This document shows positions 13,676 to 17,188 of a DNA stretch of 51,732 nucleotides, one piece after another. The position numbers were made by a program, and so were the translations under genes. The notes under the pieces were generated by a model that saw only the letters and a program-made list of their open reading frames with translations, was not told the origin of the DNA and did not search any database. Source of the stretch: an uncultured Candidatus Saccharibacteria bacterium (lineage in GTDB: Bacteria; Patescibacteriota; Doudnabacteria; UBA920); the NCBI GenBank assembly GCA_964512925.1, contig CAZEKH010000006.1, positions 1 to 51,732 of the forward strand. The letters run 5' to 3'. Position 1 is the first letter of the stretch. The number at the start of each line of letters is the position of its first letter.

Positions 13676-13684
13676 TATTTGTCC

Positions 13685-14734
13685 ATGAACAAAGAACAAT
13701 TACAAACAATCGCAAAACAAATGGTCGCAGAGGGTAAGGGGATACTCGCTGCCGACGAGAGTATGAACACGGTAGGCAAAAGGTTTGCCGCCATTAACTT
13801 GGAAAACAACGAAGAAAACAGGCGCGCTTTTAGGCATATGCTGCTTACAGCGCCCGATGAAGCCGAGTACATAAGCGGCGTGATTTTGTTTGACGAAACT
13901 ATCCGGCAGAACGACTTAAATGGCAAGTCGTTTGTACAAACTCTTCAAGAAGAAGGAATTTTGCCGGGCATTAAAGTAGACCTTGGCCTTACGCCTATGA
14001 AAGAGGGAAGTTTGGAACAACTGACAAAAGGCCTGGACACCTTGGACCAGAGGCTAAAAGAATATGTTTCTTTAGGCGCAAAATTTTGCAAATGGCGCAG
14101 CGTGACGACCATTGGCGAGGGTATGCCGAGTGACGAAAATGTCAGGCAGAACGCGAAAGACCTGGCTCAGTATGCTTTAATATGCCAGCAAAACGGCCTG
14201 GTGCCTATGGTTGAGCCGGAAGTGCTTTTGGAAGGTTCTCATAGCATAGAGCAGTCTGAAATGGCAACGGAAAAAATCTTAACCGCTCTTTTTGAAGAAA
14301 TGAAAAACTCAGGGGTTATTTTTGAAGGAACAATACTTAAAACCAGTATGGTTATTTCCGGCAGTAAGTCCGGGGTCAAAGATACGCCGGAGCAAGTAGC
14401 CGAGGCGACTGTCAGGCTGTTTAACAAAGCTATCCCGGAAAATCTGCCTGGCGTGGTATTTTTATCAGGTGGGCAGGGCGATGTGCAGGCAACCGAAAAT
14501 TTAAACGCCATAAACCAAAAAGGTTCATTTCCCTGGCCGGTAACTTTTTCCTATGCCAGGGCGCTTCAGGACGCGGCCACTAAAGTCTGGACAGGTAAGC
14601 CGGAAAACATACAAGCGGCGCAAAAAGCTTTCCTTCATAGAGCCAAGATGAACAGCCTCGCCAGCCTCGGGCAGTATTCTTCGGAAATGGAAGCGGGTTT
14701 TTCTTCCACCGAAGCGTCAGTAACGCAAAACTAA
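13685..14734 (+). CDS. fba: Class I fructose-bisphosphate aldolase
   Basis: GKGILAADESMNTVGKRF, ISGVILFDET, LPGIKVD, KWRSV, EPEVL and the FLSGGQ motif series are present. ATG 13685 is preferred over TTG 13679. Confidence 0.9.
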   Translation: MNKEQLQTIAKQMVAEGKGILAADESMNTVGKRFAAINLENNEENRRAFRHMLLTAPDEAEYISGVILFDETIRQNDLNGKSFVQTLQEEGILPGIKVDLGLTPMKEGSLEQLTKGLDTLDQRLKEYVSLGAKFCKWRSVTTIGEGMPSDENVRQNAKDLAQYALICQQNGLVPMVEPEVLLEGSHSIEQSEMATEKILTALFEEMKNSGVIFEGTILKTSMVISGSKSGVKDTPEQVAEATVRLFNKAIPENLPGVVFLSGGQGDVQATENLNAINQKGSFPWPVTFSYARALQDAATKVWTGKPENIQAAQKAFLHRAKMNSLASLGQYSSEMEAGFSSTEASVTQN

Positions 14735-14829
14735 GCTTTTTACGGAATACGGAAAATCAGTACGGATATACGGAAAAAAACTACAAGTTAATTAATCCGT
14801 ATATCCGTAAGTATTCGTACTCCGTAAGG
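14735..14829. repeat. TACGGA-arm hairpin element, empty copy
   Basis: Left arm ctttttacggaatacggaaaatcagtacggatatacggaaaaa, about 18-nt spacer, right arm tccgtatatccgtaagtattcgtactccgtaagg. The arms are homologous to those flanking 15703..16095. Confidence 0.8.
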
Positions 14830-14871
14830 TTAAATCTTTAAATCAAAAATCATTAAATCTTAAATTAAAAA

Positions 14872-15645
14872 ATGATTCCTCTCATCAAAAAAACTCAAAA
14901 AGATTCCAACAATCACGACCAGGAAGTGGTGTGTTTTACTTCCCAAGGGCGGGAGATCTGCATCCCTGCCAATCAGCTTGAACATCTGTTTAAGAAAGGC
15001 ACCACGCGCGAAGTTTCCAGCTGGACTATTATGAAGATACTGGCTGAGTTTATAGCCGGTTTTGATTTTTTGAAAAAATTTAAAAAATCTGTCAGTTTTA
15101 TGGGTTCAGCCAGGATAGGGCTTCAAAATGGGGTTTATAAGGAAGCTGAAGACTTGGCGTTTAAGCTGTCAAAATCCGGTTTTAGCATTATCACCGGAGG
15201 CGGTCCGGGCATAATGGAAGCGGCCAACAAGGGGGCTTATGAAGCCGGCGGCAAAAGCGTAGGTATCAATATTAAACTACCTTTTGAACAGCGCACCAAC
15301 CAGTATGTCAAAGAATCGGAAAGTTTTTCTTTTTTCTTTACCAGAAAAGTGATGCTGGAAACCGCTTCTTCCATCTACATCTTTTTTCCTGGCGGTTTTG
15401 GCACGCTGGATGAGCTGTTTGAAATGGTAACCTTGATTCAAACCCGTAAGATCCGTCCTGTGCCGGTCATACTGGTGAACAAAGCTTTTTGGCAGCCGCT
15501 TTTGGACTGGATGAAAAACACTATCTGTAAAGACAACAAGGCTATTGGGGAAAAAGATATGGATATTTTTAACCTGGTGGACAATGCGGACGAAGCCTAC
15601 AAACTGATCAAAGAACTGTCCAAAGATAAACATTTGTTTAACTGA
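14872..15645 (+). CDS. LOG family / TIGR00730 Rossmann-fold nucleotide-binding protein
   Basis: GGGPGIMEAANKGA and PGGFGTLDELFE motifs are present. Confidence 0.85.
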   Translation: MIPLIKKTQKDSNNHDQEVVCFTSQGREICIPANQLEHLFKKGTTREVSSWTIMKILAEFIAGFDFLKKFKKSVSFMGSARIGLQNGVYKEAEDLAFKLSKSGFSIITGGGPGIMEAANKGAYEAGGKSVGINIKLPFEQRTNQYVKESESFSFFFTRKVMLETASSIYIFFPGGFGTLDELFEMVTLIQTRKIRPVPVILVNKAFWQPLLDWMKNTICKDNKAIGEKDMDIFNLVDNADEAYKLIKELSKDKHLFN

Positions 15646-16137
15646 CTTTACGGAGTACGGAAAAGACAGTACGGATATACGGAAAAATAAAATTTTTTTA
15701 ATATGTCTGTAGAAACAAAAAAAGATTTGGTATTTTCTGAATTGAGCGGTAGAGTGATAGGGATTTTATTGGATGTATATAATCAATTGGGTTATGGTCA
15801 TCCTGAAAAAACCTACCAAAAAGCGCTATGTGTTGCTTTCAAAAAAGCCGGCATATCTTATGTTGAACAGCTTTATGTACCGGTAATTTTTGAAGAAAAA
15901 GTGGTAGGAAAAAACTATTTTGATTTTTTGATTGAAGATAAACTGGTGCTTGAAATAAAAAAAGGAGACTATTTTTCCAAAACCCACATTGACCAGGTAT
16001 ATAAATATCTTGTAAGTAAAAATTTAAAATTAGGAATATTGGCTTATTTCGCGCCTAGGACTGTACATTTAAAGCGAGTTGTAAATTTATACTAAATGTA
16101 TTTTCCGTATATCCGTAAATTTCCGTATTCCGTAAAG
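15646..16137 (+). mobile_element. TACGGA-arm hairpin element carrying a GxxExxY (PD-(D/E)XK-like) gene
   Basis: The arms ctttacggagtacggaaaagacagtacggatatacggaaaaa (15646-15687) and ttttccgtatatccgtaaatttccgtattccgtaaag (16101-16137) are inverted repeats that bracket the ORF. Confidence 0.7.
15703..16095 (+). CDS. GxxExxY family protein (PD-(D/E)XK nuclease-like fold)
   Basis: The signature GYGHPEKTYQKAL (G-x-x-E-x-x-Y) is present, followed by D..IEDKLVLEIK (D..E.K nuclease-like). Length is 130 aa. Confidence 0.8.
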   Translation: MSVETKKDLVFSELSGRVIGILLDVYNQLGYGHPEKTYQKALCVAFKKAGISYVEQLYVPVIFEEKVVGKNYFDFLIEDKLVLEIKKGDYFSKTHIDQVYKYLVSKNLKLGILAYFAPRTVHLKRVVNLY

Positions 16138-16145
16138 ATAACTTT

Positions 16146-17045
16146 ATGACAAAATTTTTTCTCGACTCCGGCGATCCGAAAGAAACCAAAGAGGCTTTGG
16201 CGGTTTTGGGTCAGCTGGACGGCCAGACGACCAATCCGTCACTCATTGCTAAAAATCCAGATGCGGTCGGTAAAAAGTTTTCTGAAAGCGAGATTCAAGA
16301 TTTTTACCAGAGAGTGGTAGGGGAGATATCGGCTATGATCCCGAGCGGTAGTGTGTCCATAGAAGTCTATGCTGACCTTGAAACCACAGCGGAACAAATG
16401 GTTAGGCAGGGCAGGCAGTACAACACCTGGATACCAAACGCGCATATTAAGCTGCCTATCACAAAAGAAGGCCTGAGGGCTGCCAATGTTTTGGTTTTAG
16501 AAGGTATAAATGTCAATATGACCCTGTGTTTCTCACAGGAGCAGGCCGCGGCTGTCTATGCTGCAACCAAGGGCGCCAAAAAAGGCCAGGTATTTTTGTC
16601 GCCGTTTGTCGGCCGCCTGGACGACATCGGCTTTCGGGGTATGGATTTGGTGGAAAATATTTTAAAAATGTACAGCAAAGCTTCTAAAGCAACCTCTCTG
16701 TCCGCAGCCCCGGACATCTCCCCTCGCCAGGGGAGAGAAGGTTCTTTGGAGGGGGTGTGTCACGTAGAAGTTTTGGCTGCCAGTATAAGAAGCCTCGGGC
16801 ATATGGATGAATGTATAAAAGCCAATGTGGATATAATTACAGCTCCTTTGAAAATTTTGAAAGAATGGCAGATATTAAGTCATCAGTCATCAGTTGTCAG
16901 TGATCAGTTAAAATTAAAACCAATAGCATATAAACAAATAGACCTAAACCAAGCTTGGGACAGCTTTGATATCCAGCACGAGCTTACAGACAAAGGGCTG
17001 AAAAAATTTGCCGAGGACTGGAACAATTTAATTGCTCAGAAATAA
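16146..17045 (+). CDS. tal: Transaldolase (short Fsa/TalC-type) with in-frame insertions
   Basis: FFLDSGDP, GQTTNPSLIAK, IKLPIT.EGL, NVNMTLCFS, SPFVGRLDD and HELTDKGLKKFAEDW are present. At 299 aa it is longer than the roughly 215-220 aa usual for this type. Confidence 0.85.
   Translation: MTKFFLDSGDPKETKEALAVLGQLDGQTTNPSLIAKNPDAVGKKFSESEIQDFYQRVVGEISAMIPSGSVSIEVYADLETTAEQMVRQGRQYNTWIPNAHIKLPITKEGLRAANVLVLEGINVNMTLCFSQEQAAAVYAATKGAKKGQVFLSPFVGRLDDIGFRGMDLVENILKMYSKASKATSLSAAPDISPRQGREGSLEGVCHVEVLAASIRSLGHMDECIKANVDIITAPLKILKEWQILSHQSSVVSDQLKLKPIAYKQIDLNQAWDSFDIQHELTDKGLKKFAEDWNNLIAQK
16717..16736. repeat. Palindromic element copy inside tal
   Basis: tctcccct cgcc aggggaga is an 8-bp perfect stem. 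It encodes DISPRQGRE within extra sequence between MYSK and VEVLAASIRS. Confidence 0.6.
16881..16908 (+). repeat. 4 x 7-nt tandem repeat inside tal
   Basis: The units are catcagt catcagt tgtcagt gatcagt. They encode HQSSVVSDQ. Confidence 0.7.
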
Positions 17046-17075: not shown

Positions 17076-17119
17076 GACCAAAGAAAAAAGACCAATTGAC
17101 TGGTCTTTTTTCTTTGGTC
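17076..17119. terminator. Bidirectional terminator hairpin between tal and tRNA-Pro
   Basis: A perfect 19-bp stem gaccaaagaaaaaagacca / tggtcttttttctttggtc with a 6-nt loop. The 3' arm overlaps the encoded CCA end of the tRNA. Confidence 0.7.
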
Positions 17120-17188
17120 GGGATGCTGGGAATTGAACCCAGTCTACCTGCTCCCAAAGCAGGCGTACTACCGGTATACTACATCCCG
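17115..17188 (-). tRNA. tRNA-Pro (anticodon UGG), CCA encoded
   Basis: The minus strand reads CGGGATG-TA-GTATACCGGTAGTAC-G-CCTGC-TTTGGGA-GCAGG-TAGA-CTGGG-TTCAATT-CCCAG-CATCCCG-A-CCA. The cloverleaf has a 7-bp acceptor stem and a canonical T-loop. Confidence 0.9.

Follow-up and report, generated by a model that had tools for sequence, protein, structure and literature searches.

A GxxExxY nuclease gene between inverted hexamer arrays, and a gene-less copy of the same foldback, on either side of a LOG gene in an uncultured Patescibacteriota bacterium

What accounts for two closely similar pairs of inverted repeat arms, one pair enclosing a small nuclease gene and the other enclosing none, on either side of a single gene? 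The question is raised by the window, the 51,732-nt stretch analysed here, which is positions 1 to 51,732 of contig CAZEKH010000006.1 (C6:1-51732) in the assembly GCA_964512925.1 of an uncultured Candidatus Saccharibacteria bacterium (Doudnabacteria; UBA920), a genome of 1.08 Mb and 41% G+C (G000; the labels C, G and L denote contigs, genomes and loci). Four co-directional genes, fba, LOG/TIGR00730, a 130-amino-acid GxxExxY open reading frame (ORF) and tal, lie within 13679-17045, with arms built from the hexamer TACGGA standing gene-less in the spacer between fba and LOG (fba|LOG) and framing the GxxExxY gene in the spacer between LOG and tal (LOG|tal). A first-pass annotation, made from the letters alone, had taken these for the empty and loaded forms of one hairpin family in which the arms are the repeated unit. 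This has held, with six armed genes of the GxxExxY family PF13366 in the genome, a third copy of the arms at C5:57143-57213 and dispersed gene-less foldbacks. The comparisons set out below suggest, tentatively and with slightly less than even confidence, that the locus is a repeat-nuclease partnership of the REPIN/RAYT or Ssn/NTS type.

The empty element is an imperfect foldback of 93 nt at 14738-14829 (all features of the two elements are given on the + strand). Its left arm (14738..14774) reads TTT-TACGGA-A-TACGGA-AAATCAG-TACGGA-TA-TACGGA, with units at 14741, 14748, 14761 and 14769, and its right arm (14796..14829) reads TCCGTA-TA-TCCGTA-AGTA-TTCGTA-C-TCCGTA-AGG, with TCCGTA at 14796, 14804 and 14821 and the variant TTCGTA at 14814, the sole degenerate unit in the arms of the window. 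The loop AAAAAACTACAAGTTAATTAA (14775..14795), which contains AGTTAATT, places 21 nt between the innermost units. The loaded element (15646-16137) wholly occupies the LOG|tal spacer with its two arms and the GxxExxY gene (15703..16095, in the direction of the operon), the left arm (15646..15683) reading CTT-TACGGA-G-TACGGA-AAAGACAG-TACGGA-TA-TACGGA with units at 15649, 15656, 15670 and 15678, and the right arm (16104..16137) reading TCCGTA-TA-TCCGTA-AATT-TCCGTA-T-TCCGTA-AAG with units at 16104, 16112, 16122 and 16129. The scaffold common to these arms is CTT-TACGGA-n-TACGGA-[4-9 nt]-TACGGA-TA-TACGGA, that is two dyads of a 6-nt unit in an arm of approximately 36-40 nt, and the arms always oppose each other in the convergent order TACGGA...TCCGTA, making a foldback. 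In a repeat search of the window the left arms were 92-94% alike, the right arms 84%, and left and right arms 94-100% complementary to each other. This search and the protein profiles agree with the first-pass annotation that the same arms surround the 130-amino-acid ORF, and folding bears out its hairpin after the fba stop codon; the arms, however, hold four units each rather than three, and the hairpin begins at 14738 with 21 rather than about 18 nt between the innermost units.

The two copies lie just 800 nt or so apart and only three TACGGA copies were found in the genome, features that would suit an artefact of local duplication or assembly, or a resemblance due to chance, with no meaning beyond it. 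Such an origin is so improbable that it is counted as refuted. Allowing up to two mismatches, TACGGANNTACGGAAA matches four times against 0.33 expected, a number reached in none of 100 shuffles, and the empty copy folds with a free energy of -37.1 kcal/mol against -15.7 +/- 2.6 for shuffled sequences (z = -8.4), with the fold of the loaded copy closing through its arms (z = -6.2). The TACGGA hexamer is itself under-represented in the genome (182 occurrences against approximately 264 expected), and across the whole 1.08 Mb clusters of at least three TACGGA/TCCGTA occur solely in the two elements of the window and at C5:57152-57182, within the third copy. Since three independent Logan assemblies (SRR14271332, SRR14271335 and SRR14271336) match the arrangement base for base at 100% identity, an assembly artefact is ruled out, and the same arms recur at other loci and in other genera, with some 115 matches against one for a control (see below). 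The genome-wide arm search proposed in the first-pass annotation returned the two elements, the decayed C5 copy, which follows a GNAT gene and has a complete left and a decayed right arm, and in addition a related foldback on the same scaffold with TACGAA units at C1:230413-230537. The suggestion that the arms act as terminators fared less well, with a consensus scan finding no intrinsic (rho-independent) terminator at either element (the sequences after the stems being GGTTAAATC and ATAACTTTATG). Likewise, no Rfam 15 family matched at the elements, the best being a miRNA at chance level (E 0.28).

The protein encoded between the arms matches PF13366 (PDDEXK_3) with an E-value of 6e-27 and 94.8 bits (cut-off 22), its residues 13-124 aligning with positions 2-115 of the 117 in the profile, and TIGR04256 (GxxExxY) with 92.9 bits against a cut-off of 35. 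In an alignment of 26 sequences of relatives G30, E35, D74, F75, K86, Q98 and Y102 are invariant and E84 is present in at least 90%, the set E35...D74...E84-x-K86...Q98xxxY102 being the pattern of RecB/Cas4-type nucleases. A single-sequence AlphaFold2 model was poor (predicted local distance difference test score, pLDDT, 47) and was replaced by one made with the 26-sequence alignment (pLDDT 90.4), for which the best Foldseek match was Cas4 SSO0001 (4ic1, E 1e-4). Other matches were LHK-Exo and lambda exonuclease (alkaline/lambda exonucleases), the nuclease domains of AdnAB/AddAB, tRNA-splicing endonucleases and the Hjc resolvase, with TM-scores that were modest, just 0.47-0.52. In keeping with the PD-(D/E)XK assignment of the first-pass annotation, profile, motifs and modelled fold together predict a minimal Cas4/RecB-like PD-(D/E)XK nuclease that belongs to this family. 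The Fe-S cysteines of Cas4 are absent from the 130-amino-acid sequence on direct reading, the PDB gave no sequence relative by protein query or profile, the best PADLOC defence protein match (E 0.01) had no passing stretch, and no PHROGs phage family matched the protein. The function of PDDEXK_3 was entered as 'unknown' in a reference survey of PD-(D/E)XK enzymes (PMC3424549), and no description of repeat arms was found in the literature on GxxExxY, PDDEXK_3 or PF13366.

The history of the arms and of the protein can be followed at the orthologous LOG|tal spacer of two relatives (G083 and G002). Coding DNA of fba, LOG, tal and the GxxExxY gene is approximately 75% identical between the window and these genomes, with synonymous divergence (dS) saturated, yet the arms are 89-97% identical over aligned positions and the GxxExxY gene has a non-synonymous divergence (dN) of 0.14-0.18, below the values for LOG (0.25-0.31), tal (0.32) and fba (0.25-0.29). 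Because arms and protein have changed so little despite saturated dS, both the protein and the non-coding units are under strong, long-term purifying selection at one locus, unlike a decaying insertion. Recent horizontal transfer as the cause of the protein similarity to G083 and G002 is ruled out by the saturated dS. In 30 related loci the scaffold is present on both arms and the units are uniform within an element; in the 15 elements with eight parseable units and a consensus of at least 5 of 8, most units match the consensus of their own element. That consensus differs by clade, being TACGGA at 72-100% protein identity, TACGAA at 59-62% and TACTAA at 57-64%, with TACAAA also occurring, such that all eight units have switched in concert. 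The odd units within TACGGA and TACTAA elements are TACGAA, the one-step intermediate, and only one odd unit is matched in the partner arm against approximately 15 unmatched (of the 17 counted, two arise from mis-parsing of L039). A set of 52 arms, drawn from many genomes, keeps the units in 34-39 but leaves the base between the first and second of them free (A 21, T 17, G 13, C 1), and its spacers and loops vary in length and sequence. As the odd units are uncompensated and the base between units is free, the constraint lies on the sequence of the unit and not on pairing alone. A stem, whether of RNA or DNA, explains neither the identity of four units in each arm nor their joint switching, and for this reason one sequence-specific, multimeric reader bound at each unit is proposed, which would most plausibly be the encoded nuclease.

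It had been suggested in the first-pass annotation that recombination between the two copies might delete or invert the LOG gene. No sign of this was found, with the order fba-LOG-tal and its orientation kept in every relative with visible flanks. The LOG|tal spacer is nevertheless a hot spot of varied occupants. A GxxExxY gene in TACGGA arms is present in G000, G083 (81% identical protein) and G002 (75%), one in TACTAA arms in G084, G013, G062 and G078 (57-64%) and one in TACGAA arms in G075 (43%). In G029 (L021) the spacer carries a PF05635 gene (E 3e-35, with a weaker match to bAvd) in arms of ACAAGCAA units, in G027 a gene-less foldback of GTGACAAAA units, and in G026 (L009) and G018 (L010), which belong to two other genera, an unrelated ORF of 139-146 amino acids with no Pfam match and no obvious arms, with G016, G017 and G028 near-empty at 50-80 nt. 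Elsewhere, G027 has a TACGGA-armed gene (72% identical protein) at another locus, TACGAA-armed relatives follow ftsZ in four genomes and others precede glpX or tpiA. The left arm in G078 (L048) is composite, with a degenerate CTTTACGGGATACTG dyad of TACGGA-like units preceding a complete TACTAA arm, and may be a trace of turnover between element types at one site. Other orders of the modules were also seen, namely L-ORF-[L loop R] in G083 (L038) and [L loop R]-ORF-[L loop R] in G077 (L055), L and R being the arms, and at G077:C16:94460-94487 the inner dyads adjoin directly, leaving no loop.

The TACGGA hairpin at fba|LOG was present only in the genome of the window and absent from all relatives. 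In G002 this spacer is an empty 28 nt, TAAAGCAATATTAAATCTTAAACTTTTTTAATG, and the foldback of the window stands between TAAGC and TTAAATCTTTAAATC; other relatives have different unit-array foldbacks there, with units TTGACAAGA, TTAACA or TTGCAGATTT. On this comparison the gene-less copy at 14738-14829 appears to have arisen in the lineage of the window. Orthologous GxxExxY genes (L039 and L040) end, next to their right arm, in codons (V-N-L) identical to the AGTTAATT that stands beside the right arm in its loop, an 8-nt match that is no more than suggestive of an internal-deletion derivative of a loaded element having been copied into the neighbouring spacer. The gene-less family of genus g3 has loops of GGGAGCACT type, to which this one is unrelated. 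A distinct repeat family, an AAATCTT-type unit array (14830..14871, + strand), lies between the foldback and the LOG start codon, and part of it (TTAAATCTTAAA) is also found in the otherwise empty fba|LOG spacer of G002. Arrays of this AAATCTT(T)AAAT family were seen directly 5' of start codons at 14830-14871 and at C6:65458 and 65922, C1:47449, 105652 and 218413, C4:88493 and C5:46770 and 102481, the one before LOG having a 14-mer in common with the right-arm end of a PF05635 gene at C6:65061-65378.

The flanks of the paralogues, a comparison also proposed in the first-pass annotation, place the window in a wider setting. All six PF13366 genes of the genome, two of them decayed, are framed by inverted arrays, each of 3-4 short units, and run in the same sense as their neighbouring genes, each bearing its own unit type: TACTAAA at atpD|atpC, T/ACGAAT before tpiA, TTTGCAAAT/TACAAAT before smc, TACTAAT/TACAAAT after lemA and a more complex unit at gap|pgk. 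Local duplication as the source of the arms, the alternative raised there had neither armed paralogues nor further arms been found, is contradicted by these flanks. Unit-array foldbacks are common in the spacers of this genome, with a CTAATT-unit family comprising at least 12 gene-less copies (among them C1:64706, 123816, 164039, 201759 and 230850, C4:92060, C5:61444, 66710 and 75093 and C7:37542) and one loaded copy at C1:26187-26711 that carries a PF05635 gene; the copy at C7:37542 adjoins a run of N and has at least six tandem units. The remaining two PF05635 genes of the genome are likewise within unit arrays. Complete unit-array foldbacks in both flanking spacers, as for LOG in the window, were also noted for ordinary genes, namely rpsE and a 198-amino-acid methyltransferase (C5:79425-80149; C1:5031-5758). 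At C2:131777-132124 inverted arms of CAAATATACAAAT units surround approximately 205 bp without an intact ORF, which fits a decay series from loaded gene through pseudogene and remnant to bare foldback.

The arms fit tightly between the flanking genes. In the window the class I fructose-bisphosphate aldolase gene fba (13679..14734, + strand; PF00274, E 3e-135; NF033379, 455 bits) ends with a TAA (14732-14734) 3 nt ahead of the empty foldback, the left arm of the loaded element begins at the base after the TGA (15643-15645) of LOG (14872..15645, + strand, between both foldbacks; PF03641, E 2e-33; TIGR00730, 149 bits), and the start codon of the transaldolase-family gene tal (16146..17045, + strand; PF00923, E 1e-50) follows 8 nt past the right arm. 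At many loci the gaps are similarly small, with 0-3 nt separating the left arm from the stop codon upstream and 3-8 nt the right arm from the start codon downstream, and the ORF has the sense of its upstream neighbour in at least 26 of 30 cases and of its downstream neighbour in 24 of 25. Beyond the arms, the 3' end of LOG (15625-15645) and the 5' end of tal (16146-16165) are partly reverse-complementary (AAACATTTGT against AAAATTTTGT), as also at L039. Downstream of tal a tRNA gene on the - strand (17118-17188; Rfam, 63.7 bits) is adjoined by a perfect 20-bp hairpin with a T tail (17076-17119).

The near-flush fit to stop and start codons and the almost constant operon sense of the ORF would be expected if the arms acted in RNA, pairing in the operon transcript like the stem of an rRNA intervening sequence (IVS) so as to loop out the ORF and join the upstream stop to the downstream start, perhaps with cutting by RNase III, the insertion being harmless or serving mRNA processing or stability. 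The predicted stems are strong, and PF05635, a family found within RNase III-excised rRNA IVSs (PMC4990558), occurs here in the same kind of arms. The mismatches tell a different story, with no excess of sense-strand G-U pairs (24 against 31 antisense, a comparison of low power) and odd units that go uncompensated in the partner arm. To this are added the four-unit identity and joint switching, which a stem leaves unexplained, and the absence of an Rfam family match, such that an RNA-level role of this kind is considered unlikely as the explanation of the elements.

The gene-less copies were surveyed with the 14-mer TACGGATATACGGA from the inner part of the arm, which was run together with its reversed control against 95 genomes of the family. 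The matches, approximately 115 in number, fell in 25 of the 95 genomes, with the control giving one. Approximately five of them follow ATGA without the outer dyad and are probably coding; such ATGA-preceded copies were seen in several genera (L074, L075, L080, L092 and L094 in G010, G033, G035, G086 and G093) and may be the start of a conserved ORF (M-I-R-I-Y-G) and not an arm. Close pairs are always in the order (+) then (-), and the 20 unpaired and 19 paired matches that were retrieved are all intergenic gene-less foldbacks or solo arms, which often abut a stop codon at one end and leave 3-8 nt to a start codon at the other. Loaded TACGGA copies are restricted to G000, G083, G002 and G027. 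The loops of gene-less copies are more alike within a genome (0.645) than between genomes (0.449; permutation p 2e-4), from which it follows that copies multiplied inside genomes after these diverged; at approximately 75% loop identity they are not young, with units that are near-perfect. All 25 genomes with the 14-mer also have a GxxExxY gene of this clade (Fisher p 3e-10); by genus, the gene is present in 17 of 28, including all 11 that have the 14-mer (p 9e-4). Taken with the conservation at LOG|tal, the sequences indicate that the arms are the conserved, selected and multiplying module.

Multiplication within genomes, inverted ends made of several sites and the presence of one element type at differing sites in different genomes recall a classical cut-and-paste DNA transposon with multi-site terminal inverted repeats, in which GxxExxY would be the transposase and the empty hairpin a miniature inverted-repeat transposable element (MITE). 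This is judged very unlikely. No target-site duplication was seen at the approximately 15 junctions inspected and no occupied/empty polymorphism in the population, the three assemblies (of short Logan contigs) being identical to the window. A genome carries a single gene copy for each unit type, the element occupies the same locus in different genera despite saturated dS and under strong purifying selection, and the 130-amino-acid nuclease core lacks a strand-transfer domain.

A different account is that the foldback is primary and independent, either a REP- (repetitive extragenic palindromic) or MITE-like repeat or a host structural repeat with some other reader, with small genes such as GxxExxY and PF05635 genes being later residents at its dyad axis. 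Homodimeric PD-(D/E)XK restriction enzymes are suited to palindromic targets, and a dimeric nuclease could home into the centre of a palindromic hairpin, with the empty hairpins as unoccupied targets. In keeping with this, the innermost units of relatives touch or overlap the start and stop codons of the ORF, two unrelated cargo families share the chassis, and the gene-less loops in genus g3 carry a common GGGAGCACT-type sequence that is not derived from the ORF. TACGGA hairpins also occur without a cognate gene: G029 (100% complete), G084 and G085 have approximately 5-9 TACGGA foldbacks each and PF13366 genes with other units, so that a cognate armed gene is unnecessary for the presence of the hairpin and a strict need for one in the same genome is ruled out. 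An independent foldback is nonetheless held to be unlikely. Loaded and empty copies coexist unconverted, G000, G002 and G083 each having 2-6 empty copies and a single loaded one per unit type, and the unit type peculiar to each paralogue would demand a matching hairpin family in every case. Nor does it explain why units are uniform within hairpins, and the module orders of G083 and G077 are unlike simple insertion at an axis.

The repeat-nuclease partnership starts from what the comparisons establish, that is the anatomy of arms and foldbacks, the gene-less dispersal, the purifying selection and the concerted switch of eight units, and adds to these a reader role for the nuclease. The single-copy gene, which has no promoter of its own in view, lies in the loop of the foldback and would be transcribed with the host operon. 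The units would be binding sites of one multimeric, sequence-specific reader, most plausibly the encoded nuclease, which, lying within its own cluster of sites, would be inherited and would change together with them. Since in relatives the start codon adjoins or overlaps the innermost unit, binding may also allow the protein to control its own expression. Nuclease action at the arms, on the foldback or on single-stranded DNA, followed by host repair, would then copy or maintain gene-less foldbacks in the manner of REPIN/RAYT and Ssn/NTS. The elements may be of a 'selfish' character.

Several points weigh against this partnership. The support for it comes from genomic sequence comparison and a predicted fold, with no binding, cutting or movement observed, and a lone PD-(D/E)XK nuclease cannot carry out strand transfer. 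The hairpins of G029, G084 and G085, the lack of target-site duplications and the lack of population polymorphism, set out above, count here too. The unit-array chassis is not specific to the nuclease, because arms of this kind also enclose genes for an unrelated, non-enzymatic protein, PF05635 (23S rRNA IVS protein, Avd-like), both in this genome and at the LOG|tal spacer of G029. The co-variation of gene and arms is partly trivial because the two are physically linked, and concerted change could in principle be given by repeat-to-repeat conversion, although the conserved, non-identical contexts in which the four units stand fit this less readily. Five alignment positions (16, 19, 90, 101 and 126) separate the TACGGA group from the rest and are candidate specificity residues, but their standing as determinants of specificity is confounded by phylogeny. 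Inverted complementarity of host flanks past the arms is marginal (mean score 11.1 against 10.3, p 0.03, 23 loci).

The partnership has precedents. Work attributed to Nunvar et al. in 2010 and to Bertels and Rainey in 2011 is said to have described REP/REPIN repeats together with a RAYT gene (REPtron). As there, a single-copy enzyme gene lies between inverted copies of its own repeat, gene-less inverted doublets form intergenic hairpins dispersed in the genome, families of repeat and gene correspond, and inheritance is long-term and mostly vertical. The systems differ in the enzyme, which is a 130-amino-acid PD-(D/E)XK nuclease here (PF13366 being the only gene between the arms) and an HUH/Y1 transposase in RAYT, in the arm, which has four short direct units where REP is one palindrome, and in copy number, which is low here at 2-10 per genome, with hairpins lacking a matching armed gene in some genomes. 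Ssn proteins are small, single-strand-specific GIY-YIG nucleases that cut the NTS/SRM repeats flanking their genes, with the repeat on both sides in 42% of homologues and with binding and cleavage demonstrated in vitro (PMC11893778). The likeness lies in a small stand-alone nuclease gene framed on both sides by a repeat (in Ssn, the recognised one), in variants of repeat and nuclease that go together and in dispersed gene-less repeats. The fold of Ssn is GIY-YIG (cd10448), however, with Pfam finding PF13366 alone in the present case, and NTS is a single hairpin motif in hundreds of copies and not a four-unit array.

Resemblances to other systems are more partial. In the 23S rRNA IVS of Coxiella burnetii an S23p (PF05635) ORF lies between inverted repeats and is excised by RNase III (PMC4990558). 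Both there and here a small sense ORF is held in the loop of a long inverted repeat within a transcribed region and is vertically kept, and PF05635 genes stand in unit-array arms here and in G029. The IVS is placed in helix 25 or 45 of 23S rRNA, whereas the present element is placed between protein-coding genes, has arms that are unit arrays and gives no sign of RNA-level selection in the G-U test. With insertion sequence (IS) or other multi-site-end transposons and their MITEs the elements have in common inverted ends of several protein-binding sites (putative here) and gene-less derivatives, but they have no recognisable transposase domain, no target-site duplication, no recent identical copies and one locus across genera. 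Free-standing homing endonuclease genes are comparable in being small nuclease genes between housekeeping genes at sites occupied or empty among relatives. Such genes have no inverted repeat arms, and their target is a conserved sequence of the host, whereas here the arm is the conserved sequence and the sites vary by genome (LOG|tal, after ftsZ, before glpX, before tpiA). A nuclease gene framed by the repeats it recognises is already known in print for Ssn (PMC11893778), as is an ORF within a stem for the rRNA IVS (PMC4990558). The present locus adds conservation at an orthologous site, stepwise unit switches on one scaffold, uncompensated odd units, within-genome loop similarity and the occurrence of hairpins that lack a matching gene.

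PF13366/GxxExxY is a very common prokaryotic family, and the locus offers a compact, testable hypothesis in which the flanking hexamer arrays are recognition sites. The natural variants TACGGA, TACGAA and TACTAA on one scaffold, with proteins 57-81% identical, are ideally suited to assays of binding and cleavage and could yield small sequence-specific nucleases. Such foldbacks occupy a noticeable fraction of the scarce intergenic spacers in ultra-small genomes, a point relevant to annotation and to operon expression. Through the PF05635 genes in unit-array arms, the ORFs of rRNA IVSs are linked to the same kind of chassis. A bolder joint reading, one we regard as improbable as a whole, is that GxxExxY is a very large family of minimal multimeric sequence-specific nucleases whose recognition word would be legible from the eight flanking units. 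Gene and arms would then be an undescribed class of persistent repeat-nuclease symbionts in operon spacers, riding on host transcription, spawning gene-less foldbacks and shifting specificity as protein and sites co-evolve step by step (from TACGAA to TACGGA or TACTAA), with the Avd-like PF05635 proteins of rRNA IVSs on the same chassis. If true, it would tie the long-unexplained ORFs of the IVSs to the same biology.

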